Counted from the first letter of the stretch, positions 25,512 through 45,237 are shown. The stretch: 64,000 nucleotides of DNA from Promethearchaeota archaeon (GCA_019058295.1 JAHPZI010000021.1:96001-160000); one strand, 5' to 3'. Notes: generated by a model not told the origin, from the letters alone. Numbers and translations are program-made.

Positions 25512-28500
25512 ATGATTGATCCTAATAATATTGAAGAACTATTAGAATATTCTGAAGAAAAATATAGAGCTCTTTTCGACAATGCTCCATTTGCCATTGG
25601 AATTGTAGATATGGAGGGAAGAATTGTTGATATCAATTATTACCATGAAAGTAATGGAGGATTTGAAAAGAAAGATTTAATTGGTAAAAAATTCATTGAG
25701 ACTGGAGTAATACCAAAGAATTATGAAAAAGTTTTTATAGATGTTTTTAAAGAATTAGTTAAGGGAAATACTCCAGAACCAAAAGAAGTTCAAATTTATA
25801 ATAAAAAGGGAGATTTAATCTGGGTTAAAATACAATGCTCCTTCATAAAACTAGGAAAAGAAAAATTAATTCAAGTTATAACCCAAGATATTACTGAAAA
25901 AAAAAAAACAGAACAGAAATTAAAAGAATCAAAATTCCGTTATATTAATTTTATAGAAAATTTTCATGGGATTGCGTTTCAAGGATATCAAGACTTTTCA
26001 ATAGGATTTTTTCATGGAGCTATCGAGGAAATAACCGGATATGCTAAAAATGCATTCTTGTTAGGAAAAATTAAATGGGATCAAATTATCCATCCTGATG
26101 ATTTAACACAATACAAAAATAATATAAAACAATTTCATTCATCGTCTAAGACGTCAAATAGTCGAGAATACCGGATTATCCGAAAAAATGGAGATTTACG
26201 ATGGGTAACAGAAACAATTCAAAAATTTTACGATGATAAAACCAATATGGAAGGTGTTCGTGGTACTATTATAGATATTACTGAGAGAATGAACTCAGAA
26301 AAAAAACTCAAAGAATCTGAAGAAAGATATCGATTAATTACAGAAAATATAACTGATATGGTAGCCATTATTACCGGGGATTTCGTAATAGAACATATTA
26401 ACGAATCAATACATAAAAAATATTTAGGTTATTCAAAGGATGATTTATTAGGCAAAAAATCCTTAGATCTAATACATCCAGATGATCTCAAAAATATTTT
26501 GCATTTGTACAAAAAAGAGTTGGAGGTTGGTGAAGGTAGAGCAGAACTTAGATATAAAAAGAAAAATGGGGATTATATATGGCTGGAGATACAAGGAAAG
26601 AAATTTATCGATATTGATGGAAACGAAAAATTCCTTGCAGTTTCAAGAGATATTTCTGAAAAAAAAACAATGGAACAATCTTTAAAAAAATCTCAAGATG
26701 AAAAATTATTTATTTTAAATAATATTCCGGCGCTAATTGCGTTTCAAGATAGAGAACATAATATTTTATATGCAAATAAAGCTGCTGGAGATTCTGTTAA
26801 TAAATCCGCTGAAGAGTTATTAGGGAGAAAATGCTATGAGATTTGGAATATAAGGAGAGAACCATGTGAAAATTGTCCTGTACATGCTACCTTGATATCA
26901 GGGAAGGGTGAGTTAAAAGAAATGACAACACCCGATGGAAGAATATGGCAAATAAGAGGCTTTCCCGTTAAAGATGATAATGAAAATATAATTGGAGCTA
27001 TTGAAGTGACAGCCGAAATTACCAAGCGCAAAAAAGCAGAACAAAGATTAAAAGAATCTGAAATAAAATATAAAAATCTTTTTGACAATTTTCCGATTGG
27101 TATATTCTTATTTGATGACTCTGGAAATTTACTTGAGGGAAATACAAAGGTATATAACTCATTCTCAGGATATCCTCCTGATCAAAGTATTGGAAAGAGT
27201 TTCTTAGAGATAATATCCTTATTTAAGAATTCTGATGAATTATCAAAGATATTTAAGAATAGAGCAATGGAAAGAGCCAATGGAAAGGAACTGAAACCTA
27301 TTGAACTGAAATTAGTAAGACAAGATGGAAAAGAATTATGGATATATTGGCATAGTATAGTTTTAAAACTTAAAAACAAATCTATAATTCAAGCAGTAGT
27401 TCAAGACATCACTGAGCGTAAGAAATTTGATCAAATGTTAAGAGAATCTGAGGAAAAATTTCGGACTTTATATGAAAATATAGCAGGAGGTACGTTAATT
27501 ATTAGTGATGACTATATTATTAGAGATGTGAATGAGAGAACTTGTGAAATTACTGGATATAAAAAGGAAGAGCTAATTGGAAAGCTATGTGATATAGTAT
27601 GTCCGAAAGGTTCAGCGTCCAAATCTTGTCCTATTTGGGAAGGTGAAAAAGAAGGATTTAAAGGTATGGACACAGCAATCAAATGTAAAGATGGAAGAAA
27701 AAATCCAATTTTGAAAAATGCAAAAAGAATTCTATTTGAAGGAAAAATACATATCCTCGAGAATTTTCAAGATATAAGTGAAAGGAAAAATGCAGAAATC
27801 AAATTAAAAGAATCTGAAGAAAAATATAGAAGTTTATATGAAAACTCTATAAATGCGATTATTTTACTTGATTTTAATGGAAAAATTATTGATTGCAATT
27901 CAGCCACTGAGAAAATATGTGGCTATACTAAGGATGATATAATTGGTCAAAACTACTTAAAATTACCGTTTTATCCAAAAAGTATGATTAAAGTGTTAAA
28001 AGAGAGATTTCAAGCAATATCAAAAGAGTTAGATTTAAAATCACAAGAATTACAAATTAAAAGAAAAGATGGGAATTTCGCATGGGTTAAAACTAAGATA
28101 TCTTACATAAAAATAGGAAATCAAAATTATTTACAAGTATTAGTTCAAGATATAACTGAACAGAAAAATGCTGAAGAAAAATTAAGAGAATCTGAAAAAA
28201 AATATCGCAAGATTTTTGAATCTATTCCTGATCTATTCTTTTTAGTCTCAAATGATAGTACAATATTAGATTATAACGCTAGTAGTGAAATTGATTTTTA
28301 TGTACCACCAGAGAAATTTATGAATGTTAAATTGATAGATTTTTTTTCTCAAGAAATTAGAGAAAAAACTCTTGTAAAAATAAATGACGTCCTTGAATTA
28401 AAAAAACCACAAATCTTAGAATATTCCATACCTATTAATGATAAAACACGATTTTTTGAAGCCAGATTTCTATTCTTTTCTAAAAACAAAATCTTAATAT

Positions 28501-30527
28501 TCATTAGAGACATCACAGATAAGAAGGAATCGGAAAAAGGAATATTAGAACATGCCAAAAAATTAGAAATATTAAATCAAATTATAATAGCCGGAAACAA
28601 AACAGAAGATTTAACATCATTATTAGAAGATATTTTAACTCAAACCCTCAAATTATTAAATTTTAGTGGTGGAGGTATATATCTTGTTAATAAAACAAAA
28701 AAAATTGCTGAATTGGTATGCTATAAGAATCTTCCTATAGATTTCATTGAATTTGTAAGATTAAGAAAGATTGATCAAGAACCAAATAAAACTATTTTTA
28801 TTAAAGGTGAACCAATTTTTAGTGAAAATTATCAAATAATTGAACCCTTAATTGTTAAAAAGTGGGGTCTTTTATCTATTGTTAGTATTCCTTTATTTTC
28901 AAAGGATGAAATTATTGGAGCTTTGAATATTGCTTCAAAAACTCGTCATAAATTTACATTTCAAGAAAAAGATATACTTATTTCTATTGGACGAGAAATT
29001 GGAACTGTAATTTCTAAAATTAAAGCTGAAGAGACAATAAAAGAAGGGGAAAAATTTCTTTCAAATATTTTTACTAGTATTCAAGATGGAATGTGCATTT
29101 TAGATAAAGATTATAATATCATTCAGACAAATCCTACAATGGAAAAGTGGTATTCTCATAAAAAACCACTTACCAATTTAAAATGCTATCAATTATTTCA
29201 TGATAAAAATGAACCATGTGAGGATTGTGGTTGTTATCATGTAATTGAAACAGGAGAGTCTTGTATTAAATATATTCCCCGATTAGGACCTAAAGGAAAT
29301 ATTTTGGGGACATTAGAGATCTACACTTTCGCATTCTATAATCAAGAAACGGGTAAAATTTCAGGAATAATTGAATATATTCGTGATATTACAAATCAAT
29401 ATAAAACTGAAGAAAAATTAAAGCAGTCTGAAGAAAAATCTCGAGGAATATTAGAAAACATAAAAGAAGGCTATTTTGAAATTGATTTGCAGGGGAATTT
29501 TACTTTTTATAATGATGCGCTACATCAAATTCTTGGATATTCTGAAAAAGAATTGGGGGGTGTGAATCTAAATAGAATAGTAGATAATCAAACGAATAGA
29601 GAATTAAGACAATTTTTCTATAATATCTTCCAAACAGAAATTCCTCAAACTAGTTTTCAATTTGAAATTAGAAAGGGAATTATGGAAAAAAAAGTCCTAG
29701 AAACTTCCGGTTATCTAAGATATGATACAAATAAAAATAAAATTGGATTTTGTGGATTGGTTCGAGATATTACGGAAGCAAAGAAAGTTGAGTATATGGT
29801 TAAAGAGGAGATCAGAAAACTTAAAGAACTAGATTTATTAAAGGATGAATTTATGTTCAGAGCATCTCATGAATTAAAGACCCCTTTAAATCTTGTATGT
29901 AGTGCTTCATCTCGGCTTTTAGAGTCATATAAAGATAAATTAACTTCAAAAGAAAAGCAATTGGTAGAAGTTATAAATAAAGGGGGTGAGCGATTAGAAA
30001 AATTGATTAAAGCTTTACTAGATTTATCTCAAATTGAAACAGGGAAATTGGAATTGGATAAACATAATGAAAACATTTCAAAAATATTAGAAGGCTGCAT
30101 TAATGATACCTATTATTTAATTATAGAACGTGATTTAAACTTAAAAATGGATATTCAAAAAGAAATTTTTACTAAGGTAGATAAAATTAGATTTGAACAG
30201 GTTATATTTAATTTAATATCAAACGCAATAAAATATACACCTCCAAAAGGAACATTATCAGTAAATTTAAAAATTCAAAACGGATTTATCAAAATTGAGA
30301 TAAAAGATAATGGTGTTGGATTCACTGGTGATGAAATAAAGAAGATTTTTACAAAATTTGGTAAAATTGAAAGATATGGAAAAGGGATGGACATAGATTC
30401 TGAGGGATCTGGACTTGGATTATATCTATCTAAAAAAATTGTTGATGCTCATAATGGTGTGATTTGGGTTGAGTCAGAAGGCAGAAATAGAGGGTCTTCC
30501 TTTATTATCAAATTACCAATTAATTAA
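25512..30527 (+). CDS. Soluble sensor histidine kinase: about 10 PAS + GAF + HisKA + HATPase
   Basis: Repeated DITE..K..E.KLKESE linkers; SHELKTPL; NLISNAIKY, DNGVG, GSGLGL; no TM segment seen. Confidence 0.93.
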   Translation: MIDPNNIEELLEYSEEKYRALFDNAPFAIGIVDMEGRIVDINYYHESNGGFEKKDLIGKKFIETGVIPKNYEKVFIDVFKELVKGNTPEPKEVQIYNKKGDLIWVKIQCSFIKLGKEKLIQVITQDITEKKKTEQKLKESKFRYINFIENFHGIAFQGYQDFSIGFFHGAIEEITGYAKNAFLLGKIKWDQIIHPDDLTQYKNNIKQFHSSSKTSNSREYRIIRKNGDLRWVTETIQKFYDDKTNMEGVRGTIIDITERMNSEKKLKESEERYRLITENITDMVAIITGDFVIEHINESIHKKYLGYSKDDLLGKKSLDLIHPDDLKNILHLYKKELEVGEGRAELRYKKKNGDYIWLEIQGKKFIDIDGNEKFLAVSRDISEKKTMEQSLKKSQDEKLFILNNIPALIAFQDREHNILYANKAAGDSVNKSAEELLGRKCYEIWNIRREPCENCPVHATLISGKGELKEMTTPDGRIWQIRGFPVKDDNENIIGAIEVTAEITKRKKAEQRLKESEIKYKNLFDNFPIGIFLFDDSGNLLEGNTKVYNSFSGYPPDQSIGKSFLEIISLFKNSDELSKIFKNRAMERANGKELKPIELKLVRQDGKELWIYWHSIVLKLKNKSIIQAVVQDITERKKFDQMLRESEEKFRTLYENIAGGTLIISDDYIIRDVNERTCEITGYKKEELIGKLCDIVCPKGSASKSCPIWEGEKEGFKGMDTAIKCKDGRKNPILKNAKRILFEGKIHILENFQDISERKNAEIKLKESEEKYRSLYENSINAIILLDFNGKIIDCNSATEKICGYTKDDIIGQNYLKLPFYPKSMIKVLKERFQAISKELDLKSQELQIKRKDGNFAWVKTKISYIKIGNQNYLQVLVQDITEQKNAEEKLRESEKKYRKIFESIPDLFFLVSNDSTILDYNASSEIDFYVPPEKFMNVKLIDFFSQEIREKTLVKINDVLELKKPQILEYSIPINDKTRFFEARFLFFSKNKILIFIRDITDKKESEKGILEHAKKLEILNQIIIAGNKTEDLTSLLEDILTQTLKLLNFSGGGIYLVNKTKKIAELVCYKNLPIDFIEFVRLRKIDQEPNKTIFIKGEPIFSENYQIIEPLIVKKWGLLSIVSIPLFSKDEIIGALNIASKTRHKFTFQEKDILISIGREIGTVISKIKAEETIKEGEKFLSNIFTSIQDGMCILDKDYNIIQTNPTMEKWYSHKKPLTNLKCYQLFHDKNEPCEDCGCYHVIETGESCIKYIPRLGPKGNILGTLEIYTFAFYNQETGKISGIIEYIRDITNQYKTEEKLKQSEEKSRGILENIKEGYFEIDLQGNFTFYNDALHQILGYSEKELGGVNLNRIVDNQTNRELRQFFYNIFQTEIPQTSFQFEIRKGIMEKKVLETSGYLRYDTNKNKIGFCGLVRDITEAKKVEYMVKEEIRKLKELDLLKDEFMFRASHELKTPLNLVCSASSRLLESYKDKLTSKEKQLVEVINKGGERLEKLIKALLDLSQIETGKLELDKHNENISKILEGCINDTYYLIIERDLNLKMDIQKEIFTKVDKIRFEQVIFNLISNAIKYTPPKGTLSVNLKIQNGFIKIEIKDNGVGFTGDEIKKIFTKFGKIERYGKGMDIDSEGSGLGLYLSKKIVDAHNGVIWVESEGRNRGSSFIIKLPIN

Positions 30528-30557: not shown

Positions 30558-31403
30558 TTATATAAGAGATAGTAAGCTTTCTAATTGATTAAATTTAAAT
30601 GGTTTTAAAAAATAACCATCAGCACCTGTTTCTATTAATTTTTTCTTGACTTCCGATTCTGGAACAGCAGTGACATAAAAAACAGGGATATCTTTAAGAT
30701 CATCATTAAATTTAATTTTTTTACAAATCTCATAACCGCTTATATCTGGTAAAATTATATCTAATAAGATAATCTTTGGTTTATAATTCTTTAACTCATC
30801 TAATCCTTGATTTCCCGTAAGAACTCCTTTGCATGTAAGATTTTTTGACTCAAAAAAATCATCTAGGATTGTTATAGCAGGTGGATTATCTTCAATTATT
30901 AAAATGTCATATTCAAATTTCTCGGGTTCAATCTCGTAGACAAGTTGATTAATTGTATTCTCAAGAAATTTGCTTTGATTGAGAATTTCTTTTATTTTTG
31001 TAAGAATATTTGGATTTAAATTGTTCGATTCATAATCAATAATTAATTGTGAAAAACCTTGTATAGTCGTTAACGGTTCTTTTAAATCATGAGAGATTCT
31101 AGAAATATCCTTTAAAAAATCTGATTTTGGTGAATTTTCAATATAAGAATTTACTGCTTTTCTAATAAATTTCGAAATCGTAGAAAAACTTTTTTCATCT
31201 GCAAAATTCTGCCATTTTTCTTTTGTTTCATCAGAAACTAAGATTCCTATACCCTTTTTATCTATTCCATAAATTTCTTCTCCTCTTTGCCATTTCTTAA
31301 ATCCTTCAGTTATAGCATTTCGCCAAATAGCTTTCTTTCCAGTTTCTGTTTCGTAACGGAGCATCTCTTCAGTTAATTTCTCTTCTTTAGTAATGAATAA
31401 CAC
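30558..31403 (-). CDS. Hybrid regulator: N-terminal motif + ribbon-helix-helix + HisKA + REC
   Basis: ILVSDETKEKW...TISKFIRKAV (RHH-like), SHDLKEPLTTIQGF, IIEDN..LLDIILPD..KPF. Confidence 0.8.
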   Translation of the reverse strand: MLFITKEEKLTEEMLRYETETGKKAIWRNAITEGFKKWQRGEEIYGIDKKGIGILVSDETKEKWQNFADEKSFSTISKFIRKAVNSYIENSPKSDFLKDISRISHDLKEPLTTIQGFSQLIIDYESNNLNPNILTKIKEILNQSKFLENTINQLVYEIEPEKFEYDILIIEDNPPAITILDDFFESKNLTCKGVLTGNQGLDELKNYKPKIILLDIILPDISGYEICKKIKFNDDLKDIPVFYVTAVPESEVKKKLIETGADGYFLKPFKFNQLESLLSLI

Positions 31404-31531: not shown

Positions 31532-32968
31532 TTATGATTCAAATAACTCTTTTATTTTTATTGCTGTTTTATTAAAGAAATTTAATCTTTTAAGTTCGAT
31601 ATCTGTATCAGGTGTGATATATTTTTGTCTTAAGAAATTGATCTTTTCTGTTAAATTATCAAATATCCAAGAAATTCTTTTTCCTTGACCAAATTCGTAA
31701 AAATCTTCTTTTACACTTTTCATAATTTTATTAATCGTCTTTTTATCCATTTTTTGTTTGTCTTTTGGCACAAAAGGCGTTGTTCCATCAAAATAAGTTA
31801 AAAGTATAAAATTTCTTTCATAATTATTTATATTAATATTTTTAACTAAAAATTCACCATTAGCAGAGGTCAATTTAAGGAAGTCTAGTGCTTGTAAGTG
31901 TAAGCTTTCAATGGTTCTTAGCGCAATTGTGCAAATCAGTGAGAACATTGCCCCTATTGCCATGGAATCGAGCTCAATCTCTGTATATTCTGATATCATC
32001 ATCCCTTTATTATCGATTAAAAAACATGAATGAAACGCCCCATTATCAGATAATTCTTGTAAGATTTCCTGAAGAATTCCTGCTTTTCCTTTTTTCTGCT
32101 CCTCTTTTTCTTTAATTTTGTCTTGATCCTCTATTAACTCAGAATAAACGTTTATATTCTTTTGATAGGCAGTTTTTTCTAATTCAGCTTTTCCAATTTC
32201 AAATTCTAACTTTTCCTTATCGAATTCAATTTTATTCTTCTCAAAATCATATTTATTTTTTTCTAACATCAATTGAATTTTTCTAATTTGCTTCTCTCTT
32301 TCTTCGAGATCAATTTTTTTTTGTTCTAATTGCTTATTTATTTCTATAAAATGTTCTCTAGCCTCCTTTATTTTGTCACTTCGGCCTTTAAAATCAATCT
32401 TAACATCTTCTAATTCTTTATTTTTTTGCTCAAATTCTTTTATTGATGTTTCAAATTCAATTCTTTTTTCTATTAATTCTTGGTTTCTATCTTCATATCT
32501 CTGTATTGATTCTTCTAATTTATTATATCTATTATTATAATCGTCGATTTTCTCATTTAATTCTTTTAATTTGTTTTCGTAAAAGGTTTTTAGATTTTCT
32601 TCCTCTTTGGTTAAGCTAATTTCTTTTGTTTCTAATTTTTTTTTATTTGTTTTAGAGTTTTTTGTTTCTAATTTTTTTTTATTTGTTTTAGAGTCTTTTG
32701 TTTCCAATTTTTTTTTATTTGCTTTAGAGTGTTCTGTTTTTACTTTATTAGTTTCTGATGAGATTAGATTACTACTTACTTTTAGGGTTTCATCTTCTAT
32801 ATTTTCCTTTATAATATCTGTATAAACCTCATCAATAACTTTTTTTACATCAGCATTAATATTTTCATCTTTAAGAAATTCTTCTTTTGTTTTAGATATA
32901 TGTGATACATCATCCGTGAGACTTTTCTCATGGGCATTAATTTGTTTTTCATTATCTTTAATTGGCAT
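31532..32968 (-). CDS. Long coiled-coil protein with C-terminal roadblock-like domain
   Basis: E/K-rich heptads; SCFLIDNKGMMIS...AIGAMFS roadblock pattern. Confidence 0.7.
   Translation of the reverse strand: MPIKDNEKQINAHEKSLTDDVSHISKTKEEFLKDENINADVKKVIDEVYTDIIKENIEDETLKVSSNLISSETNKVKTEHSKANKKKLETKDSKTNKKKLETKNSKTNKKKLETKEISLTKEEENLKTFYENKLKELNEKIDDYNNRYNKLEESIQRYEDRNQELIEKRIEFETSIKEFEQKNKELEDVKIDFKGRSDKIKEAREHFIEINKQLEQKKIDLEEREKQIRKIQLMLEKNKYDFEKNKIEFDKEKLEFEIGKAELEKTAYQKNINVYSELIEDQDKIKEKEEQKKGKAGILQEILQELSDNGAFHSCFLIDNKGMMISEYTEIELDSMAIGAMFSLICTIALRTIESLHLQALDFLKLTSANGEFLVKNININNYERNFILLTYFDGTTPFVPKDKQKMDKKTINKIMKSVKEDFYEFGQGKRISWIFDNLTEKINFLRQKYITPDTDIELKRLNFFNKTAIKIKELFES
32623..32729 (-). 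repeat. 36-bp coding tandem repeat (NKKKLETKxSKT, about 3 copies)
   Basis: Visible in both the DNA and the protein. Confidence 0.9.
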
Positions 32969-33020: not shown

Positions 33021-33473
33021 TCATAATAGTGAGCCTAAACTTTCAAAGAGCTCCTCTTTAGAAGTTTCTTCTTTGAAATAGTTTTTAATCTCATCAATAA
33101 TTTTATTTGTTTCAAATTGAATTAATCCAAAATTAATCTTTTTAGAAAATATTACTTGAATAAGTACGTTTGAAAATACTCTTGTTATTAATATTGAAAA
33201 ATCTGCATCAAGGCTTTTGTCCATACCGGCATCAATCTTTATTTGTTCGAGCATTTTATTTTTATTGATTATTTCTATACCTCTTTCTGCCATTGATAAA
33301 ATACTTGCTGAGATCGCAGCAAAATTAATATTCATTTCCTCATATTGGTCGTTTTGTTCACTATTTGAAGCTATTACTAAACCATCTTCAGTAATTAAAG
33401 TTGAACTTTTAACGCCAGTATTTAAAATAAAATCATCTAAAAGATTTATTAATTTAATTCTAATATCTGACAT
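33021..33473 (-). CDS. Roadblock/LC7 domain protein
   Basis: STLITEDGLVIAS...FAAISASILSMAE; paralogue of 35473-35925. Confidence 0.85.
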   Translation of the reverse strand: MSDIRIKLINLLDDFILNTGVKSSTLITEDGLVIASNSEQNDQYEEMNINFAAISASILSMAERGIEIINKNKMLEQIKIDAGMDKSLDADFSILITRVFSNVLIQVIFSKKINFGLIQFETNKIIDEIKNYFKEETSKEELFESLGSLL

Positions 33474-33556: not shown

Positions 33557-33922
33557 TTAACCTAAAACCATTTTGATTTTATCCAGAGCAGCATTTATCT
33601 CGAAATCTATTAGTCCTATTTTGGCATCTGAGGGAGCTAATGCAATTAGAGCTGCTTGCGCTAATTGATGGACAACAATAAGATTATCCTTACCACTAAT
33701 TACATGTGAACTCACTTTACCTGATTTTAAAGTATCCGCAACCCTTGACCCAACTGATGTTAAAGCTGCAGTCATGGCAGCTATTCCACGCTCATCCATA
33801 TCTTTATGTAAAGCGCTTGCCATCATCTGACCTTTCAAAGATATAACTGCACTGTTTGATACTTCGGAATTCTTTTCTAAATCATATAATATGTCTTTAA
33901 TTTTTTCTGATCGAGCACTCAT
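33557..33922 (-). CDS. Roadblock/LC7 (MglB-like) protein
   Basis: SAVISLKGQMMAS...IAAMTAAL...AKIGLI. Confidence 0.9.
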   Translation of the reverse strand: MSARSEKIKDILYDLEKNSEVSNSAVISLKGQMMASALHKDMDERGIAAMTAALTSVGSRVADTLKSGKVSSHVISGKDNLIVVHQLAQAALIALAPSDAKIGLIDFEINAALDKIKMVLG

Positions 33923-33940: not shown

Positions 33941-34066
33941 TTATTTTTTATCATAAAATTCACAAGTGTCCTTTTCCTTCGCTGTAACAAAAATTTTCTT
34001 TTTCTCACACCAGACTAATCCATCGGAATTTTCATCTCCTGCAAATTTACAATCACTTTTTGCCAC
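33941..34066 (-). CDS. Unannotated 41-aa Cys3 microprotein
   Basis: GGGTGA RBS then GTG; MAKSDCKFAGDENSDGLVWCEKKKIFVTAKEKDTCEFYDKK*; homologous to the C-terminus of 36062-37525; fills the operon gap. Confidence 0.85.
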   Translation of the reverse strand: MAKSDCKFAGDENSDGLVWCEKKKIFVTAKEKDTCEFYDKK

Positions 34067-34641: not shown

Positions 34642-34712
34642 TTATATTTAAATCTTTTTATAAAGAAAGTTTTTGTCACTTTGTGGTTCCATATAAAAAG
34701 ATTTAAATATAA
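34642..34712. promoter_or_regulatory. Perfect 21-bp inverted repeat forming back-to-back BRE-TATA-like promoters
   Basis: TTATATTTAAATCTTTTTATA (34642-34662), 29-nt spacer, TATAAAAAGATTTAAATATAA (34692-34712), between divergent operons. Confidence 0.8.
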
Positions 34713-36061: not shown

Positions 36062-37525
36062 GTGGTAATACGTCAATGTATCGTTAATAATATTAATGAA
36101 AAGAATATAAATAAATTTCTGATAGAGAGATTAAACCATAATAATCCTTTAGTACGAAGAAATGCTGCCTTAGAAATAGAAAATCAAGGTATCTTAATCG
36201 CAATTACTCCATTATTAAGTACATATTTTCCTGGATCTTCATATATAATTCCTCGTATAATCGGAAAAATAGGGAAGAAAAATATAAAACTCTTACTTAA
36301 AATTGCAATGAATAATTATAATGGAACGAGAATGCGGCAATATGCTATTGAAGGATTAGGAAAAATTGGAGATAAAAAGATACTAAATAATTTATACTTA
36401 CTTTTAAAGAGTGATGATGTTTATATTAGGAAAAGTTGTATATTAGCACTGGGAGACATTAGGGATAAAAATTCTGCTGGAAAGTTATTATATTTATTAG
36501 ATATAGAAGTTGATTGGATTAAACCCTATATTATTTGGTCACTTGGAAAATTAGGTGATTTAAATTGTTTAAATAAACTAATTGAAATGTTATCCATAAA
36601 AAATTTAAATTTCATCACTAAGAAAATAATTATTAAAGCATTAGGATGGATTGGAGATAAAAGAGCGGTAAAAAAGCTCATTGAACTTTTAAATGAAAAA
36701 AATTCAGGTTTAGAGGATTATATTCTATTTGCTTTGGAAAACATAGGTGATACAAAAGTATTACCAATTTTAATAAAAAATTACTTGAAACCTATATGGT
36801 TTTTAAAGGAACACAATAAATGCATAATAAATAAGTTATCTCCTCAATGGAGAAATTTATTAAACAATTATGATTTAAAAATTTACAATAGAGAAGACTT
36901 ACCTCCACATTTTTATACAAACATCAATAATGAGGATGATTGGTTTTATGGTTGTTTAAACAAATCTCATTACATCTTAAATTCTCAGAAAAAAATCATT
37001 GGTTGTTTAAATTTAATTTATTTAATAAATTATGAGAAAGTTATTCTTTTTTATATGGATACAATTGAAATAAAAGAAGAATTTCGCCGTCAAAAGATAG
37101 GAACAGAATTAGTTAATCAAGTCATTAATGAAATTAAAAAGAAATTCGAGAGATTTAATATCTTTTTGTTAGTTGCAAAATGTAAGCAATATAAATTAAA
37201 ATTTTTTAGTACATTAGGATTTATACCTATAAAATTAAGAAAAACAGGGGTAGGTGCACATTGTATCATGAGTTATCCATTTACAGAAGATTCAGAAAGA
37301 AATTGTAAAAGATTGTTTGAATATTTTTGTTGGAGAGAAGAAAAAAAGGAGATTATCTCATCAGATTGTAAATATGCGTATAATCCCAATCCAACTGGTC
37401 TATATTGGTGTAAAAAAAAAATGATTTATGTTACAGGGTTAGAAAAAAAAAAATGTCCATTCTATATTAAAGAAAAGGAAATAATTAGTGAGAAGAAATT
37501 TTTTGATTTAAAAGAGTTTTTCTGA
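36062..37525 (+). CDS. HEAT-repeat + GNAT acetyltransferase + Cys3 domain protein
   Basis: Repeated ALG.IGD..A HEAT units; EFRRQKIGT acetyl-CoA motif A; FF..LGF; C-terminal C-x13-C-x14-C. Confidence 0.8.
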   Translation: MVIRQCIVNNINEKNINKFLIERLNHNNPLVRRNAALEIENQGILIAITPLLSTYFPGSSYIIPRIIGKIGKKNIKLLLKIAMNNYNGTRMRQYAIEGLGKIGDKKILNNLYLLLKSDDVYIRKSCILALGDIRDKNSAGKLLYLLDIEVDWIKPYIIWSLGKLGDLNCLNKLIEMLSIKNLNFITKKIIIKALGWIGDKRAVKKLIELLNEKNSGLEDYILFALENIGDTKVLPILIKNYLKPIWFLKEHNKCIINKLSPQWRNLLNNYDLKIYNREDLPPHFYTNINNEDDWFYGCLNKSHYILNSQKKIIGCLNLIYLINYEKVILFYMDTIEIKEEFRRQKIGTELVNQVINEIKKKFERFNIFLLVAKCKQYKLKFFSTLGFIPIKLRKTGVGAHCIMSYPFTEDSERNCKRLFEYFCWREEKKEIISSDCKYAYNPNPTGLYWCKKKMIYVTGLEKKKCPFYIKEKEIISEKKFFDLKEFF

Positions 37526-37600: not shown

Positions 37601-38254
37601 TTGGTAAATAACGTTAACATAGAATGCCCAATATGCAAGACAATGAAAGTGTTAAAAATTCCATTAAAAATTATAAATCAGAGTAAGCAACTTACTACTG
37701 TGTCTGTACCAATAGGATTAGTGTGCAAACATAATTTTCAAGCTTTCATAGATAAAAATTTTAAAGTGAGAGGATATCAAAAAGTTGATTTTCATTTTTC
37801 AAAAATGGAATTTTATGAGGGAGGCATCAACTCTACTATTTCTGACTTAGAAAATGAACAAAAAGTAGAAGAACAATTGATTCAGCTCAGTTCAAAGCCA
37901 ATATTTATTGAAATTTTAAAACTTTTAAGAACTTATGTAGATGATGAGGATATTTTAGGAAGTGCTCTCTTTACATTAGAAGGAAAGGTATTATATTCAT
38001 CCTTACCATTGATGACATTAAATAATATAATTAGAGAATTTGAAATTAGAAATCAGAAGGAATTAATTCAAGTAGAAAAACTTTTTCTGGTTTTAACTAA
38101 TAAACAGAAAATATTCTCGCAATTTCTTGAGATTAGGGGTTATTCTCTTATTATAACTTTAATTTTTTCAAAAAAAATTCAATTAGGTATGGGAGATTTA
38201 CACTTAAGGGAATTAATAAAAAAAATATTAAAAATTAATCCATGTATGAATTAA
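37601..38254 (+). CDS. Zinc-ribbon + roadblock/profilin-like domain protein
   Basis: CPIC...CKH, FIDKNFKVRGYQKVDF; ILGSALFTLEGKVLYSSL. Confidence 0.6.
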   Translation: MVNNVNIECPICKTMKVLKIPLKIINQSKQLTTVSVPIGLVCKHNFQAFIDKNFKVRGYQKVDFHFSKMEFYEGGINSTISDLENEQKVEEQLIQLSSKPIFIEILKLLRTYVDDEDILGSALFTLEGKVLYSSLPLMTLNNIIREFEIRNQKELIQVEKLFLVLTNKQKIFSQFLEIRGYSLIITLIFSKKIQLGMGDLHLRELIKKILKINPCMN

Positions 38255-38324: not shown

Positions 38325-40160
38325 ATGGAAAGCAAATTAAATCAAGAAAATCAATATTTAAAATCTATTTTTGACTCAATTTTCGATGAAATAATGATTC
38401 TTGATAGAAACTACCAAATATTAGATGTGAATAAGACATTCTGCGATAAATATAATGTTTCAAAAGAGGATGCTATAGGATCAAAATGTTATAACTTAAC
38501 ACATGGAATTAATATGGTTTGTAAACCACCTGAATGTATCTGCCCTGTAGAAAATGTTTTAAAAACAGGAGAATTCTGTGAATCAATTCATTCCCATCAT
38601 ATAGATGGAGATATAAAATATATAGAACTATTAGCTTTTCCAATTAAGGTTAATGGTGGTTCTATTGAGCAAATTGTAAAAATTGGAAGAGATATTACAG
38701 ATAAGATCAAAGCAAAAAATATATTAAAAGCTTCCGAAGATAAATTTCGAAATTTATTTGAAAAGTTACCTTTTTCAATATTCCTATTAGATTCAAATTA
38801 TAAGATCATTGAATGTAATAGCATATCAGAAATATATATGAATGAATCTAAAAATGAATTAATAGGTATGAATTTCATAAATCTTTTTTCAATCTCGAAA
38901 AAAAAGGTTAAAGAAATCAATGAGATTTTAACAAATGTCATTAAATTTGATTTAAGTGAAATTTTAGAATTGAAATTTATTAATTATAATGGGCAATTAG
39001 CTTGGGCGGAACTTTTCTTTTCATCTGTAATTCTAAGGAATGAAAAATATATCCAAATCATTTTACAAGATATTACTGAAAGAAAATTAATAGAAGATAT
39101 TATAAAGAAAGAGAACCAGAAATTAAGAGAATTAGATCAATTAAAAAAGCAATTAATGGCTCAATTATCAGAAAAATTGAAGTCTCCACTAAATAATATT
39201 TTTGATATTACTGAAATTCTTCTGAATTCCTACAGAGAACAATTGGATGATGAAATTATAGAACTTTTGGATATGATCAAAAAAGGAGGAGAAAGATCAA
39301 TTGATATGGTTGGAAAAATGCTTGAGATCTCAAAAATTGAGGCTGATAAGCTTGAACTTAACTTTCAAACAGAAAATTTATTTGAAATTATTAAGGATTC
39401 AGTGAAAGAAATTAATGATCAAATAAAAAATCAAAATATTATTCTAAATTTAAATCTTACAGAGGATTTGTACTCTGATATCGATAAAATTAGAATTAAA
39501 TATATAATTAAATACTTGTTAACAAGTATCATTAAAGCCAAATCCTTAAAAAAAGAAATAATTGTTTCATTGATTCAAAATAACCATAATGCTGAAATAT
39601 CAACTTCTTTTAGTGGTATTGGTATAAAAAAATTAAAATCTCTTTCTGAGTTGGAATTCTCAAGAGAAATCATTGATCTACATGGAGGCAATTTAATTAT
39701 TAATTCTGAAAGTAAGAAAAAGGAAACCAATATTGTAATAAAATTACCTCTAAAAAATTGGAAGGAATCTTTAATTCATATTTACATTATATATAGGTCT
39801 GGAATCCCACTATTCGATTATTCCTTTATTGAAAAGACTAAAGCTGACAATACTACTCTAATTTCAGGGAGCATTATTGGTATGATGACTCTTTTAAAGG
39901 CAATAATACATGGGAAAAAACAGATCAAAACAATTGATCATGGGGATAGGAAATTAATGTTTGAGATGAATAGCACTAATGATGTGTCTTTTATTCTATT
40001 AGTTAAAGAGGATTTACACATATTGAGAAAAAAATTGAATGATTTAATTGAAGTTTTCGATAAAAAATATAGATATTTAATCAAAAAAATAGATATGACT
40101 CATAGTATTAGTAATTTATGGGAAGAACTCCATGTACTTATTGAAAAATTTTTTGGATAA
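38325..40160 (+). CDS. PAS-PAS-degenerate histidine kinase with C-terminal longin-like domain
   Basis: Two PAS; H-box reads LSEKLKSPL (no His); eroded N/G boxes; HIYIIYRSGIPLF...LISG longin-like tail. Confidence 0.75.
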   Translation: MESKLNQENQYLKSIFDSIFDEIMILDRNYQILDVNKTFCDKYNVSKEDAIGSKCYNLTHGINMVCKPPECICPVENVLKTGEFCESIHSHHIDGDIKYIELLAFPIKVNGGSIEQIVKIGRDITDKIKAKNILKASEDKFRNLFEKLPFSIFLLDSNYKIIECNSISEIYMNESKNELIGMNFINLFSISKKKVKEINEILTNVIKFDLSEILELKFINYNGQLAWAELFFSSVILRNEKYIQIILQDITERKLIEDIIKKENQKLRELDQLKKQLMAQLSEKLKSPLNNIFDITEILLNSYREQLDDEIIELLDMIKKGGERSIDMVGKMLEISKIEADKLELNFQTENLFEIIKDSVKEINDQIKNQNIILNLNLTEDLYSDIDKIRIKYIIKYLLTSIIKAKSLKKEIIVSLIQNNHNAEISTSFSGIGIKKLKSLSELEFSREIIDLHGGNLIINSESKKKETNIVIKLPLKNWKESLIHIYIIYRSGIPLFDYSFIEKTKADNTTLISGSIIGMMTLLKAIIHGKKQIKTIDHGDRKLMFEMNSTNDVSFILLVKEDLHILRKKLNDLIEVFDKKYRYLIKKIDMTHSISNLWEELHVLIEKFFG

Positions 40161-40200: not shown

Positions 40201-41100
40201 GTGGTTGAAATTACTACAATAAATGGGAAAGTAAGTCATCATTATATCTGTCCTGAATGTGGTGGTAGTATCATATTAGATCAAGAGAGAGGTGAAACCG
40301 TTTGTAGTCAATGTGGGTTGATAATTAATGATAAGTTTTTTATTACTTCATATTCTGAGAAAAGGGCATTTACTCGAGAAGAAAAATCTAGAAAGTCGAG
40401 GACTGGAATATTAATTTCTCCTTTATTATCAGATTTAGGATTATGCACGTTAATTGATAAAAAGAACATTAATAATCCTGATTTAAAAAGGGCTGTGAAG
40501 AGGGATTCATATTTAACATGGAAAAAAAGGAATTTATTGATTGCATCAATAGAATTAAAAAGGCTTAGTACAAATTTAGGGATTCCTTGCCATGTAATAA
40601 GTGTGGCATTAAGGTTCTATAAAGAAATTTTTAAAAACAATTTGTTAAAAGGTAGAACCATTAAAGGGATGGTTGCTGCGTGTTTATACGCTGCGTGCCG
40701 GAATGAAAATCTACCAAGAACATTTCAAGAGATATTAAATGAATCTCCGATTAGTTGTAAGACAATTAAAAAATGTTTTAAAATAGTACTCAACTACTTC
40801 AATTTAAAATTGCCACAAGCAAACATAATCTCTTTTATTCCTAGATATACTTCGGCACTAGGTCTAAATAATGATGTTGAAAAATTCGTTATAAAAATTT
40901 TACAAAGTTATTTAAGAAAGGTATCTAATAATGGCAAAAATCCAAAAGGACTCTACGCTGGTGCAATTTACCTTGCTTCAAAACTAAAAAATTCTGGGGT
41001 GACGCAAAAGGAAATCTGTGAAGTCGTAGATACGACCGAAGTCACGCTCAGGTCTAGATACAAAGAGATTATTGAGAATATTAATTTCTTGACAATTTAG
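40201..41100 (+). CDS. tfb: Transcription initiation factor IIB (TFB) paralogue
   Basis: CPECG..ERGETVCSQCG ribbon, KGRTI, GKNPKG..AGAIY, TEVTLRSRYKE. Confidence 0.92.
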   Translation: MVEITTINGKVSHHYICPECGGSIILDQERGETVCSQCGLIINDKFFITSYSEKRAFTREEKSRKSRTGILISPLLSDLGLCTLIDKKNINNPDLKRAVKRDSYLTWKKRNLLIASIELKRLSTNLGIPCHVISVALRFYKEIFKNNLLKGRTIKGMVAACLYAACRNENLPRTFQEILNESPISCKTIKKCFKIVLNYFNLKLPQANIISFIPRYTSALGLNNDVEKFVIKILQSYLRKVSNNGKNPKGLYAGAIYLASKLKNSGVTQKEICEVVDTTEVTLRSRYKEIIENINFLTI

Positions 41101-41141: not shown

Positions 41142-41417
41142 TTATTTCCTTAAAGCTTTTTCATCAATTTTTCCAATCACATTTAAAGGTAAATTATCGG
41201 AAATTTCAATTATTTTAGGTAACTTGTATTTAGCTAAATTGTCTTGAGCGTATTTTAAAATATCTGCTTTTGTCTCTTCATTATTCTCGTATCCTTCTTT
41301 CAAAAGTACATAAAATTTGACAATTTCGGAGCTTGAACGATCTGGATTGGGTAATCCCTCGCATTCACAAAGCTCAATTGGAGGATGTATATTGTATACT
41401 ATTTTTTTAAGTTTCAA
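41142..41417 (-). pseudogene. C-terminal fragment of an acyl-CoA synthetase
   Basis: GLPNPDR.SSEIVK.YV.LK, LAKYKLPK, LPLNVIGKIDEKALR; the large N-terminal domain is missing. Confidence 0.75.
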
Positions 41418-41465: not shown

Positions 41466-41855
41466 CTATTTATTCATAGAAATCTGAGGTTTTTTTATCC
41501 TTAGTGCCTTTTCAATGTTCTCTATTAATTTTTTATTTGAAAAAGGTTTCGTTTTAAAGCACAAAACTCCAATAGAAAGTGCAATTTCCTTAATGGTAGT
41601 ATCGGCACTTGCGAATATTATTTTTGCCTCACTATTGATACTAAGAATCTCTTTTGAGGCTTCAATTCCGCTCTTAATAGGCATTCGATGGTCCATTATG
41701 ATAATATCTGGCTTTATGGGGAAATTTTTATACATTTCTACTGCTTCCTTTCCATTTTTAGCAGTGCCAATAACATCAAAGCCAGAGGCTCTCAGCAATA
41801 TCTCATATAATTGCAGTATTGCTAATTCATCCTCAACAATAAAGATAGATGCTAT
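41466..41855 (-). CDS. Single-domain response regulator (CheY-like REC); probable ATA start
   Basis: IASIFIVEDE acidic pocket is upstream of the track's TTG; IMDHRMP, FASAD, KPF. Confidence 0.88.
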   Translation of the reverse strand: MASIFIVEDELAILQLYEILLRASGFDVIGTAKNGKEAVEMYKNFPIKPDIIIMDHRMPIKSGIEASKEILSINSEAKIIFASADTTIKEIALSIGVLCFKTKPFSNKKLIENIEKALRIKKPQISMNK

Positions 41856-41856
41856 T

Positions 41857-44800
41857 TTATATCAGCTCCGGAATTAATATAATAAAATTGCTTCCTTGTG
41901 AGGGATCTCCTTTAACTTTATCTTCTACCCAAATATCTCCATTGTATTCTGATAAAACTCTTTTTACAAGTAATAATCCCAATCCCATACCATGAGTTTT
42001 TTCCTTTCGATCAGAAATCCCTTTGAAGATATGTTCTTTCATTACATCTGGAACACCAATTCCATTATCGATGAATTCAAATTTTGCATAATTAGTACCA
42101 TTTTTAAACTCTCGAGAGATTTTTACAAAGATTTCAATTCTCTTATTCTCATTATATTTAATACCATTAAAAAGGATATTTTCAAAGACATCTAATAAGA
42201 GTTGGTTTGCGTTGACCTTAACTTCTTTGATCTGGGATTCAATAGCAATATTTATGTCTTTATTGGGGAGGCTTTTGTGAATAAAGCCCTTTGCTTCTTT
42301 TAAGATTTGAATTCCATCAACTTTTTCCAGAGGACTCACTGTTTCTGTAATTTCTGAGAGTTTTCTAATATTTGAAACGAGTTTTGATCCCCTTATTAAT
42401 TGATCATTAATAATTATCATTAATTCGTTGATCTTATTTATTTTCTCAGGTTTATTTTCCCACATTGAAAGGAGCCCTAAAGAGGATTGTATATTTTGAA
42501 GTATATTACTTATATCATGAGCAAATAAATCCTTATAGAATTCCGCTCGCTCATAAGCCTCCCGAAAATCTTCTTCGGATTTTTTTAATTTCTGTTCGGC
42601 CACCACCTCTTCTGTAATATCTCTTGCGATACATAAAATTCCTTCGGTTATTGGATACACACTTACTTCATAGTGTCCTATATGACCATTAGGAAGATTA
42701 AATGAATCCCTCACACGGTTTGGGATTCTTGAATTCATTACATCTTCGTATGTCTTAAAGAAGGGAGTTTGTTCTATACCCGGAAACACGTCAGTTATTT
42801 TATGCCCTAACAAATTATCTCTTGGCATATTAACTAATTTTTCAGCTAATTTATTAACTAAGGTGTATACCCAATCTCGATTTATCGCGTAAACTCCATC
42901 TGTTATAGATTCTAAAAGCATCTCATAGCGTTCTGACATTGTACGGTATTTTTCTTCAGATTCTTTTAAGTTTTCTTCAGCATTTTTCTGCTCAGTTATA
43001 TCTATAAATATTTCTTGAACTGCTGGTTTATTATTAAAAGTAATGAGTGAAGCATATATTTCAACAATTCGAGGAGTACCATCTTTTCGAATAATACGAA
43101 ATTGATAATTTGGTGGAACTGGTTTTCCTTTTAAACGTTCCTTATGGCGATTTAAAACGAATTCTCTATCATCTGGATGTATTAGGCTTATAACTTCTTC
43201 TTTAGACATAGACAGTAAATCATCAACGCTATATCCCAAGATATTCGATAATGCCTTATTTGCGAATATAATTTGAACTTCTTGAAGAATACATATTCCT
43301 TGTAATGATTTTTCTACCAACATTCGATATTTTTCTTCTGATTCTTTTAATTTTTGTTCCGCTTTTTTGCGCTCTGTAATGTCCCTTATAAACATGACAA
43401 CCTTATTTTCAGAAAAATATAGAAAACGACCTTCATAATAATGTATCCCATCTTTCATTTGTAGTTTATATTCAAATATCTGTTGTTCTTTTGAATTAAT
43501 TGCTTTTTTAATATGTTCTGCGCTTACTCTACCCACTTCAGGAGGTAATATTTCTATAGCTTTTTTTCCTAGGAATTCCTCTGGAGGTATGTATAATTCT
43601 TCCATTTTGCCACTATATTCTAAAATGGTGGTATCAGCAGCCACTAAGAAAAATAAATCAGGTAGCGCTTCAAAAATAGCCCTAAATTTCTTTTCAGATT
43701 CTTTTAATTTTTGTTCTGCTTTCTTTCTTTCAGTGATATCTCTCATAATAGATAAATAAGTGTTTTCGTCCTTCTCTCCAATACTATCCATATTCAATAA
43801 TGCCGTAAAAGTGCTATTATCCTTCCGCCTTAATTCAACCTCAAAATCTCGAACAAAACCTTTTTCACTTAATATTTGAAATAATTCAGAACGTTGTTCA
43901 TTAGAAACATATGTATTTTGGATACCAACCATGTTTACCTCTTCCTTGCTATAACCAGTAATCTCTTGGAGAACCGAATTCATTTTTAGTACCTTTCCAG
44001 GAGACACAACTCCAATTCCTATTGGTGATTTTTCAAATAATAACCGATATGATTCTTCTGATTCTTTCAATTTTTGTTCTGTTTTTTTGCGATCGGAAAT
44101 ATCCCTAAGAATGGCTAAATCAGCAGGCTCTCCCTTCCATTCTGTTTTCGCGGCATTTATTTCAACACATACGTTGGGTCCATCCTTTTTAAGTAAAATT
44201 GTTTCATATTTTGCGAGGGTTGGTTTACCATCAATTCTTTTCTTAAATCTTTCCATAACCTTATTAATTTCATCAGGATGCAATAAATTTTTAATATTGA
44301 GTTTGAGCAATTCATCAATACTATAACCTGTTACCTCTGAAGCTCGCTCATTTGCATAAACAATTTTGCCTTCTCCCATTCCAATGAAAATACAGTCATT
44401 AGCATTATTAGCTATATCTCTAAAATTCTTCTCAGATTCTTTTAATTTTTCTTCAGCTTTTTTCTGTTCGGTTATATCCTGGATTATGGCTTGGAAAAAA
44501 TTTTCTCCTCGTATTGTTATATTAGCAATATCAGATTTAATCCTTGCAATTTCTCCATCTTTTCTTTTAACTTCTAATTCCTGTGGTTTTATTCCACCAC
44601 CTTTAGTTATTGCTTGAAATCTTTCTTTTAATACATTGATCATACTTTCCGAATAAAAAGGTAATTGTAAGTAATTTTGACCAATTAGTTCATCTCTTGA
44701 ATAACCAAATATGGTCTCAGTACCTGAATTGCAATCAATAATATTTCCAGTGAAATCAAGCAATGCAATTGCATTTGGCGAATTTTCATATATATTTCGA

Positions 44801-45237
44801 TATTTCTCTTCTGATTCTTTTAATTTTTGTTCTGCTCTCTTGCGTTCTGTAATATTACGCCATATTGCTTGTATATATTTCTTATTGTGTATATTTATTG
44901 CCTTGGCACTTACATAAACATCTATTATTTCACCGCTTTTTGTTATTTGTTTCGTTTCAAAGAGATCAGCTCCTTCTGTTAGAACTTTGAAAAAATGTCC
45001 CTTAACTTCTTCTGGTGTTTCGATAATTTCAAAGGCTGGTATCTTAAGTTTCTTAAATTCATCACGTGTATAGCCTAAGTTTTTATATGTTACATCATTG
45101 AAATCTACTAGTTCTCCTGTCTCTGGATCGATGAGTACAATTGAGTCTGCTGCTTGTTCGAATAAAGCGCGATATTTTATTTCACTATCCCTTAATAACT
45201 CATCATCATCATTTTCTTCATTTTTAGAATCGTTCAA
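41857..45237 (-). CDS. Soluble sensor histidine kinase: about 7 PAS + HisKA + HATPase
   Basis: DITERKKAEQKLKESE linkers; FAHDISNILQ; NILFNGIKY, DNGIG, GMGLGL. Confidence 0.93.
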   Translation of the reverse strand: MNDSKNEENDDDELLRDSEIKYRALFEQAADSIVLIDPETGELVDFNDVTYKNLGYTRDEFKKLKIPAFEIIETPEEVKGHFFKVLTEGADLFETKQITKSGEIIDVYVSAKAINIHNKKYIQAIWRNITERKRAEQKLKESEEKYRNIYENSPNAIALLDFTGNIIDCNSGTETIFGYSRDELIGQNYLQLPFYSESMINVLKERFQAITKGGGIKPQELEVKRKDGEIARIKSDIANITIRGENFFQAIIQDITEQKKAEEKLKESEKNFRDIANNANDCIFIGMGEGKIVYANERASEVTGYSIDELLKLNIKNLLHPDEINKVMERFKKRIDGKPTLAKYETILLKKDGPNVCVEINAAKTEWKGEPADLAILRDISDRKKTEQKLKESEESYRLLFEKSPIGIGVVSPGKVLKMNSVLQEITGYSKEEVNMVGIQNTYVSNEQRSELFQILSEKGFVRDFEVELRRKDNSTFTALLNMDSIGEKDENTYLSIMRDITERKKAEQKLKESEKKFRAIFEALPDLFFLVAADTTILEYSGKMEELYIPPEEFLGKKAIEILPPEVGRVSAEHIKKAINSKEQQIFEYKLQMKDGIHYYEGRFLYFSENKVVMFIRDITERKKAEQKLKESEEKYRMLVEKSLQGICILQEVQIIFANKALSNILGYSVDDLLSMSKEEVISLIHPDDREFVLNRHKERLKGKPVPPNYQFRIIRKDGTPRIVEIYASLITFNNKPAVQEIFIDITEQKNAEENLKESEEKYRTMSERYEMLLESITDGVYAINRDWVYTLVNKLAEKLVNMPRDNLLGHKITDVFPGIEQTPFFKTYEDVMNSRIPNRVRDSFNLPNGHIGHYEVSVYPITEGILCIARDITEEVVAEQKLKKSEEDFREAYERAEFYKDLFAHDISNILQNIQSSLGLLSMWENKPEKINKINELMIIINDQLIRGSKLVSNIRKLSEITETVSPLEKVDGIQILKEAKGFIHKSLPNKDINIAIESQIKEVKVNANQLLLDVFENILFNGIKYNENKRIEIFVKISREFKNGTNYAKFEFIDNGIGVPDVMKEHIFKGISDRKEKTHGMGLGLLLVKRVLSEYNGDIWVEDKVKGDPSQGSNFIILIPELI

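Follow-up and report, generated by a model that had tools for sequence, protein, structure and literature searches.

A small GTPase among roadblock paralogs and two-component proteins in a recurrent locus of Promethearchaeota

The 64,000-nt stretch of DNA analysed here (the window) comes from a Promethearchaeota archaeon (GCA_019058295.1, JAHPZI010000021.1:96001-160000; an assembly of 3.2 Mb in 30 contigs, ~29% G+C) and carries a signalling locus of 14 genes, in which a small Ras-superfamily GTPase is encoded together with several roadblock proteins, a longin domain and two-component histidine kinases. Genes were called from an open reading frame (ORF) listing combined with Pfam and NCBIfam scans, and the features are collected in Table 1. 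All 14 genes (14/14) described in an earlier note on this DNA were found where it had placed them, and almost all of its domain calls were verified by the ORF listing and Pfam. Two PAS-rich sensor kinases, HK1 and HK2, stand at the ends of the locus and, as the Pfam-annotated ORFs confirm, face inward; between them are two divergent arms separated by an A+T-rich spacer of 250 nt. A scan for transmembrane (TM) segments detected no membrane-helix-type hydrophobic stretch in any protein of the locus, in agreement with the proposed solubility of both kinases, and this fits a cytosolic role.

Table 1. Features of the signalling locus, with positions counted from the first nucleotide of the window (aa, amino acids).
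Feature	Coordinates	Strand	Size	Description	Evidence
Whole signalling locus	25512-45237	both		14 genes
HK1	25512-30527	+		Sensor histidine kinase: 9 PAS, GAF, HisKA, HATPase	Pfam; no TM segment
RHH-HisKA-REC	30558-31403	-		Ribbon-helix-helix (RHH), HisKA and REC domains	Pfam (HisKA, REC); N-terminal RHH profile
Coiled-coil roadblock	31532-32968	-	478 aa	Lys/Glu-rich coiled coil; C-terminal roadblock (residues ~295-478)	hhalign
Roadblock A	33021-33473	-	150 aa	Roadblock	Robl_LC7 E 1e-4; hhalign
Roadblock B	33557-33922	-	121 aa	Roadblock	Robl_LC7 E 1e-9, 38.2 bits (cutoff 23)
Cys3 microprotein	33941-34066	-	41 aa	Cys3 module	Alignment
V4R-like protein	34073-34549	-	158 aa	V4R/Bet3 fold, three conserved Cys	AF2, Foldseek, VIA
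Divergent promoter	34642-34662 / 34692-34712			Perfect 21-nt inverted repeat, 29-nt spacer	Own script
GTPase	34802-35471	+		Small Ras-superfamily GTPase, G3 Asp absent	Motifs; orthologue alignment
Roadblock C	35473-35925	+	150 aa	Roadblock	Robl_LC7 E 2e-5, 24.5 bits (cutoff 23)
GNAT-Cys3	36062-37525	+	487 aa	HEAT-repeat GNAT acetyltransferase, C-terminal Cys3	Pfam HEAT_2, HEAT_PBS, Acetyltransf_1
Zn-ribbon protein	37601-38254	+	217 aa	CPxC...CxH; probable roadblock-like C-domain	Alignment; hhalign
Pseudokinase-longin	38325-40160	+	611 aa	PAS-PAS-pseudo-histidine-kinase-longin	Pfam; model
TFB paralog	40201-41100	+		Transcription factor B	Pfam Zn_Ribbon_TF, TFIIB x2
Stand-alone REC	41466-41798	-		Downstream of HK2	Pfam
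HK2	41857-45237	-		Sensor histidine kinase: 7 PAS, HATPase	Pfam; no TM segment

The earlier note had proposed that these genes form a self-contained signalling unit, to be checked by synteny across Asgard genomes, and the gene set is indeed kept together elsewhere. Orthologues of the GTPase (E <1e-50) were found in 12/60 relatives and in 31 loci of public metagenome-assembled genomes (MAGs), and tblastn synteny maps were drawn for 16 + 31 related loci. The full divergent layout is present in eight of them (in our numbering L047, L049, L052, L057, L060, L061, L065 and L076), and a partial layout, cut by contig ends, in about 12 more, giving a total of ~20 MAG loci of Promethearchaeota, the Loki-type Asgard archaea. 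The left arm runs from a rightward HK gene to the leftward genes for RHH-HisKA-REC, coiled-coil roadblock, roadblock A, roadblock B, Cys3 and V4R-like protein; the right arm consists of rightward genes for GTPase, roadblock C, GNAT-Cys3, Zn-ribbon protein, in some loci TFB and an HK2-like kinase, and pseudokinase-longin. Among ~19 informative right arms, the longin protein occurs in 15 and GNAT-Cys3 in 13, the TFB gene is found in eight loci including the window, always between other cluster genes, and the Zn-ribbon protein in about seven. HK2-like kinase cores lie within the right arm in five loci (L047, L049, L052, L059 and L061). These accessory genes keep the same order in many MAGs at 40–75% protein identity.

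Outside this group, Helarchaeota, Ca. Harpocratesius and a Heimdall-labelled MAG carry a smaller set of collinear genes, namely those for the V4R-like protein, Cys3, roadblock B, GTPase, in some cases roadblock C, then roadblock A and the coiled-coil roadblock in a short form. The GTPase family was detected in 50/301 sampled Asgard genomes, belonging to at least 13 families. Maps of 16 distant loci made with hidden Markov models show the order roadblock-GTPase-roadblock-roadblock in all of them, and the V4R-Cys3 pair in four (L096, L097, L102 and L103). One contig (JBHLNT010000058.1; L031/L047-L048) carries two GTPase right arms 18 kb apart, and on another (L035/L056) the V4R-Cys3-roadblock B left arm is present twice; the cluster is readily duplicated and rearranged. 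Since the gene set and order recur in ~20 loci, the locus is, on the evidence of gene order, more than a chance neighbourhood, and there is little doubt in our minds that its genes form a functional, co-inherited unit. The suggested association of several roadblock paralogs, kinases and a longin domain with the GTPase is real.

The GTPase is a single-domain protein of ~216–221 residues in all orthologues, and the claimed gene is present, with conserved G1, G2, G4 and G5 motifs. The start codon it had been given (GTG, 34857) does not stand, as the resulting ORF is too short: it begins inside the first strand, and all orthologues begin 5–15 residues upstream. The conserved frame is open from 34806, yet this extension is without an ATG, GTG or TTG codon. 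The sole ATG further upstream, at 34802, misses this frame by a single base over a run of six A (34808-34813). Such an anomaly would follow from a mistake in the assembly, a frameshift or the use of a non-canonical start codon. The sequence AAA ATT occurs near the starts of both the GTPase gene and the stand-alone REC gene. In the latter (41466-41850 region), a conserved N-terminal strand, KIASIFIVEDE, is encoded in frame upstream of the first TTG, and translation of this upstream part revealed no in-frame ATG, GTG or TTG start. ATT start codons for both genes are a possibility.

Alignment of the orthologues identified a G1 P-loop, a TTTGFD switch I motif, ELKGxPGQ in place of DxxGQ, ANKxD (G4) and GS[AG]K (G5). 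The G3 motif has the consensus ELKGxPG[QK], with a Gly invariant at the Asp position in 14 orthologues, and an absent G3 Asp has been described only in MglA-family GTPases (Wuichet and Sogaard-Andersen 2014, PMC4316618). A further feature is an insert of ~40 residues after switch I. Group 1 of the MglA family is marked by an intrinsic arginine finger in switch I, and in the Asgard orthologues the Arg that follows the TTTGFD motif is not invariant. No terminal Cys and no amphipathic N-terminus were seen in the sequence alignment. None of the NCBIfam MglA models matched the GTPase.

The locus encodes four or five roadblock proteins. Roadblock B is the most conserved protein of the locus (mean column identity in the alignment, 73%), and roadblock C, the right-arm roadblock for which a Pfam match upholds the original call, starts one base past the GTPase stop codon and comes after the GTPase in nearly all loci. 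Roadblock A scores slightly below the Robl_LC7 cutoff (22.4 bits; cutoff 23), and its hhalign probability is 97% against roadblock B and 99.9% against roadblock C; overall, A, B and C are mutually homologous at hhalign probabilities of 95–99.9%. The coiled-coil protein has no Pfam or NCBIfam match, and its C-domain is a roadblock by hhalign (probability 93%, E 3e-7 against the roadblock B profile), as had been claimed. In distant Asgard loci this protein occurs as short forms of ~160 aa from which the N-terminal half is absent. Within that half (32600-32750, minus strand) the protein in the window contains a short tandem peptide repeat, K.NKKKLETK, in three copies.

The Zn-ribbon protein belongs to a family seen in Promethearchaeota only, and it has no Pfam or NCBIfam match and no significant profile match to solved structures. 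Its zinc ribbon was confirmed, and the roadblock-like C-domain also proposed for it was weakly verified. The hhalign matches of the C-domain to the roadblocks are weak (E 3e-4 to 1e-3, probability 22–40%) and cover ~100 columns for roadblock A or C and 34 for roadblock B, the best being 102 columns with A (E 3e-4, 40%), so that we regard the C-domain as roadblock-like with reserve. The N-terminal Zn-ribbon module corresponds to no Pfam family and occurs in the genome as nine paralogous copies. A Rab/Ras-like GTPase is the fusion partner of one of them (G000 C2:41023-41790 in our genome and contig numbering), roadblock-like domains are the partners of two, and the rest are joined to unknown C-domains. 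A profile search of solved structures with another alignment (A2), separate from those of the Zn-ribbon protein and Cys3, gave no significant match; its marginal hit to 5kh0 (E 0.41) was dismissed.

At the head of the left arm are the V4R-like protein and the Cys3 microprotein, whose gene is always directly downstream of the V4R gene. The V4R-like protein matched no Pfam or NCBIfam model, Pfam TRAPP included; despite this, its AF2 model (pLDDT 92.9), with four helices and a four-stranded sheet, has the V4R/Bet3 fold that had been anticipated. Among solved structures the model matches TRAPPC3/Bet3 best (Foldseek E 1.9e-5; VIA Z 10.9, root-mean-square deviation 3.5 over 147 residues), with the phenol sensors MopR and PoxR (Z 9.3–9.8) and Thor TRAPPC3 (Z 9.8) tying with it within 1 Z unit in VIA; H-NOX is also among the Foldseek/VIA matches. 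The closest predicted structures are RdxA_C-type and V4R-bearing proteins (TM-score 0.64–0.79), and a language-model look-up agrees. As modelled, the protein is a member of the V4R/Bet3 superfold that lies nearer its prokaryotic sensor-type members. The names of the RdxA_C relatives describe them as C-terminal domains in rubredoxin-like proteins, which hints that fusions of a cysteine module with a V4R-like fold may exist too.

The Cys3 microprotein ORF, which had been proposed from the window, is real, being conserved in alignment. Twelve free-standing copies and five GNAT tails share the spacing C-x13-C-x14-C and an invariant Trp-Cys, and the alignment of the microprotein with the GNAT protein's C-terminal tail is gapless. 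The module thus occurs free beside the V4R-like protein or fused to GNAT, and sequence and profile searches found no relative of the microprotein in Pfam, NCBIfam or the PDB. When the V4R-like protein and Cys3 were submitted to complex prediction, the pair scored 0.53 and the best of three controls 0.00; three runs shared at least 92% of contacts, and the pLDDT of the partner was at least 79. The pass mark was reached by 58/80 solved complexes and 2/110 mismatched pairs, passes at a score of 0.60 or below comprising only 7/80 solved complexes and both passing mismatched pairs; the V4R-Cys3 run used its own alignments and two zinc ions, and these calibration counts apply to it roughly. The prediction lends weak support to a physical pairing of the two proteins.

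Among the two-component proteins, HK1 is encoded convergently with RHH-HisKA-REC, and this pair of genes recurs in at least ten loci. The RHH-HisKA-REC protein retains the H-box His and is without an ATPase domain; its HisKA and REC domains were matched by Pfam, and its RHH domain was corroborated by a profile built from ten orthologues over their first 100 residues, which matches 2k9i (E 1.1e-3) and 2kel (E 3.6e-3), both of which we take to be archaeal ribbon-helix-helix proteins. Four Arc-type RHH-HisKA-REC proteins are listed for Lokiarchaeum (Galperin et al. 2018, PMC5847659). HK1 (27800-28100) and HK2 (44300-44800) contain closely similar PAS modules and linkers (KLKESEEKYR...), which suggests recent exchange or duplication of modules. 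Cysteine-rich inserts of the C..H...C..C.C type were observed in PAS domains of the pseudokinase (38325-38700) and of HK1 (residues ~440–470 and 1240–1270). Together with the V4R-like protein, Cys3 and the Zn ribbon, they give the locus an unusual wealth of candidate metal or redox sites.

The 611-aa protein of the right arm had been described as a PAS-pseudokinase-longin fusion, and both unusual parts were verified. The phospho-acceptor His is replaced in 15/15 orthologues, by Glu in 13 and by Lys in two; these proteins also lack the N-box Asn, and most have a deletion of the G1/G2 region, so that, by its motifs, the kinase core is degenerate and is not that of an active histidine kinase. The last 134 residues form a beta-beta-alpha-beta-beta-beta-alpha-alpha fold in the structural model (pLDDT 77.8), and all of the top 50 VIA matches (50/50) are longin domains, with Fuzzy (Z 14.1) and Sec22b (Z 13.5) joined by AP sigma, TRAPPC1/C4, SRX and Mon1/Ccz1. 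The domain matched neither the roadblock profiles nor the Zn-ribbon protein by hhalign, and the longin identity is for this reason called from structure only. In a related locus (L036/L066), a roadblock-C-like N-terminus is fused to a longin domain in the gene directly after the GTPase gene.

The domain calls for the acetyltransferase and the TFB were likewise supported by Pfam, and the Cys3 tail of the former by alignment. Both Acetyltransf_1 (31.7 bits; cutoff 20.7) and Acetyltransf_7 (28.9; cutoff 27) are above threshold in the GNAT protein, of which the GNAT-Cys3 portion is conserved in 13 loci and the HEAT portion is variable. The TFB matches Zn_Ribbon_TF (5.5e-11) and TFIIB x2 (2.4e-38), and scores 244 bits against NCBIfam PRK00423, below the cutoff of 384. 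At least nine TFB-like genes are present in the genome and fall into two deep clades; a well-supported clade (100/99) unites the cluster-linked TFBs with two further paralogs from the same genome, and a branch of moderate support (75/92) can set the cluster-linked ones apart on one side. The paralog closest to the cluster TFB lies at G000 C19:84594. A second, divergent TFB paralog is encoded at 49040-49897 (minus strand), 8 kb from the cluster. Between the end of the TFB gene and the stand-alone REC gene, the window contains a 91-aa ORF (41142-41417, minus strand) whose sole match is to AMP-binding_C, the domain at the C-terminus of AMP-forming acyl-CoA synthetases (E 1e-7). The ORF has a PxxxxGK-like motif and lacks synteny in related loci; it is probably a gene remnant.

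The spacer between the arms contains the perfect inverted repeat given in Table 1. Read outward, each repeat arm has a purine-rich stretch resembling a B recognition element (BRE), followed by TTTAAATA, and comparable back-to-back TATA elements are present in L049, L052, L058 and L063. The promoter 18-mer is unique in the genome, and its 35 matches at two or fewer mismatches resemble ordinary BRE/TATA promoters, so no claim is made for a regulon sharing this promoter arm. We read the repeat as two matched strong promoters rather than a proven operator.

Taken together, these features are best explained, with a modest balance of probability in its favour, by a cytosolic MglA/MglB-like G-protein switch that is assembled on a multi-roadblock platform and wired to two-component signalling. 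On the model of MglB and Ragulator, the three to four roadblock paralogs of the core would probably form dimers on which the GTPase docks and cycles and which govern its nucleotide state, and synteny suggests that these paralogs may form a hetero-oligomeric scaffold. HK1 and HK2 would phosphorylate RHH-HisKA-REC and stand-alone REC proteins, a phosphotransfer that probably ends in DNA binding by the RHH domain, perhaps at the mirrored divergent promoter. The PAS-pseudokinase would present its longin domain to the GTPase, probably coupling a sensed signal to it, and the V4R-like protein with Cys3, a frequent add-on, would probably provide a ligand, metal or redox sensor input. The GNAT acetyltransferase may be recruited through its Cys3 tail as a docking module, and the TFB paralog would redirect transcription by changing promoter choice, making protein acetylation and altered promoter choice the likely outputs. 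For binding, phosphotransfer and the direction of signal flow alike, this is what we infer. A more specific version, in which the GTPase on its roadblock-longin platform gates a dedicated TFB, V4R-Cys3 is a metal or redox sensor and the acetyltransferase is docked via Cys3, seems to us doubtful. If it were true, GTPase platform folds of eukaryotic type would serve transcriptional signalling, and not membrane traffic, in Asgard archaea.

Several observations weigh against the proposed switch. The GTPase gene lacks an in-frame canonical start and could be damaged in the assembly. Its profile, compared with the PDB, ties Rab21 (6e-13), the Asgard Arf 8oun (6e-11) and MglA (1e-10), and databases label its relatives Arf-like or SR-beta-like. 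Support for the description 'MglA-like' comes from the missing G3 Asp and the adjacent roadblock genes, and the profile search does not single out MglA. The accessory genes are not universal, V4R-Cys3 being missing from L058, L060, L064 and L065, the TFB being restricted to just eight loci and the Zn-ribbon protein to about seven. A GTPase sub-clade (L070-L074) is without roadblock neighbours, and in L073 the neighbouring genes are unrelated (DUF998, isochorismatase and a Kelch protein). Distribution is patchy within the genus, with the cluster in 1/9 other genomes, and a GTPase query at E 1e-5 found no match in two single-contig genomes of the same order (4.3 and 6.0 Mb). The clade of cluster-linked TFBs is moderately supported, and the promoter motif is a generic strong BRE/TATA rather than a specific operator.

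The genes could alternatively encode a proto-TRAPP/Ragulator platform, in which the Bet3-fold, longin and roadblock proteins assemble to scaffold the GTPase or to exchange its nucleotide, acting on membranes or the cytoskeleton as in the trafficking of eukaryotes, and the kinases and TFB regulate expression only. The best solved match of the V4R-like model, TRAPPC3/Bet3, is in line with this, as are the matches of the longin model to TRAPPC1/C4, Fuzzy, Mon1/Ccz1 and SRX and the resemblance of the roadblock paralogs to LAMTOR2-5. However, the lead of Bet3 over MopR, PoxR and Thor TRAPPC3 is so small as to be a tie, and among predicted structures the V4R-like protein is nearer to RdxA_C/V4R sensor-type proteins (TM-score 0.73–0.79) than to Bet3 (~0.57). 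The locus encodes no membrane anchor or TM segment, the GTPase has neither a terminal Cys nor an amphipathic N-terminus, and its G3 motif and architecture are neither Rab- nor Rag-like. The longin domain forms part of a fusion with a two-component sensor, a setting in signalling that has been noted before for Asgard NPRL2-like longins, and we consider the platform improbable.

Less probable again is a partial coincidence, with a functional GTPase-roadblock core (together with V4R-Cys3) and with kinases, GNAT, Zn-ribbon protein and TFB as independent genes of a variable island. Accessory genes do vary among loci and are absent from some, the many PAS kinases and the at least nine TFB paralogs of the genome would ease chance adjacency, and HK2 is on the opposite strand in the window. 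Against this, accessory genes recur in order in many MAGs at the identities given above, the GNAT protein shares its Cys3 module with the left arm, the pseudokinase or else a roadblock-C-like protein beside the GTPase carries the longin domain as a fusion, and in its eight loci the TFB sits between right-arm genes and never at the edge. A polarity switch of MglA/MglB type that positions a motility or cell-surface machine, with PAS kinases replacing a chemosensory-like input, would accommodate the G3 motif without Asp, the adjacent roadblock genes typical of the MglA family and the tie of Myxococcus MglA to RomR. No motility, pilus, archaellum or cytoskeleton gene was found in or beside the cluster in the ~47 loci examined, and the accessories that are conserved comprise an acetyltransferase, a transcription factor and proteins that bind DNA or act as sensors; this is the least credible of the three alternatives. 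Asgard genomes encode dozens of small GTPases, roadblocks and longins, and this locus names some 14 candidate partners for a single GTPase family, sensors, an enzyme and a transcription factor among them.

Of the known systems, MglA-MglB of Myxococcus xanthus and Thermus thermophilus is similar in having a single-domain GTPase without the G3 Asp, adjacent roadblock genes and a tie to receiver-domain signalling, Myxococcus MglA being linked to the response-regulator protein RomR. It has one MglB, whereas the Asgard locus has three to five different roadblock paralogs, a ~40-residue insert after switch I in the GTPase, no motility context, and the V4R-fold, Cys3, longin, GNAT and TFB proteins in addition. 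The likeness to MglA appears to lie in the missing G3 Asp and the adjacent roadblock genes, the sequence search being a tie. The earlier note had also called the locus conservon-like, and here the analogy stands but membership does not. As in conservons (CvnA-D), genes for a small GTPase and a roadblock protein are clustered with one for a histidine kinase, and the GTPase is likely to be a node in a two-component-like pathway. Pfam scans of all cluster proteins found no CvnC/DUF742 match; conservon kinases, of CvnA type, are membrane proteins with HAMP and an LPxR tail, whereas HK1 and HK2 are soluble multi-PAS kinases; and conservon GTPases have the G4 sequence NxFD of group 2 (with DAR at G5; PMC4316618), whereas the Asgard GTPase has a normal NKxD. 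Conservons are also without a response regulator, and the Asgard locus has RHH-HisKA-REC. With three defining features failing, the locus appears to work like a conservon and is not a member of that family.

The TRAPP core and Ragulator-Rag share with the locus the Bet3/V4R fold, the longin fold, several roadblocks and a small GTPase, which are here brought together in one place. The Asgard GTPase, though, is neither Rab- nor Rag-type: it is without the G3 Asp that Rab, Ras and Arf keep, and it is single-domain, whereas Rag GTPases carry a C-terminal roadblock domain. A dead histidine kinase carries the longin domain, the locus has no membrane anchor, and the V4R-fold protein lies nearer to V4R/RdxA_C models of the prokaryotic sensor type than to Bet3. 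The GTPase type, the fusion context and the missing membrane anchor speak against counting the locus in either system. No description of the cluster was found in searchable papers, and two of its architectures are already listed as domain combinations in the accessible parts of Liu et al. 2020 (10.1101/2020.10.19.343400) and Galperin et al. 2018, such as NPRL2-like longins fused to two-component domains in Asgard archaea (Liu et al. 2020). In those parts the architectures only are given, with no mention of a recurrent position beside GTPase and roadblock genes in an operon that also holds V4R-Cys3, GNAT-Cys3 and TFB, and most genes for Asgard eukaryotic signature proteins are placed outside conserved neighbourhoods (Liu et al. 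2020). Whether operons reveal the targets of Loki GTPases was listed as an open question (Dey et al. 2016, PMC4917890), and in MK-D1 genes for GTPases are reported as a rule not to share an operon with those for roadblocks, longins or TRAPPC3 (Tran et al. 2024, PMC10933270). The locus described here is a clear exception to that pattern, and at least some eukaryote-like platform folds may act in cytosolic signal transduction.

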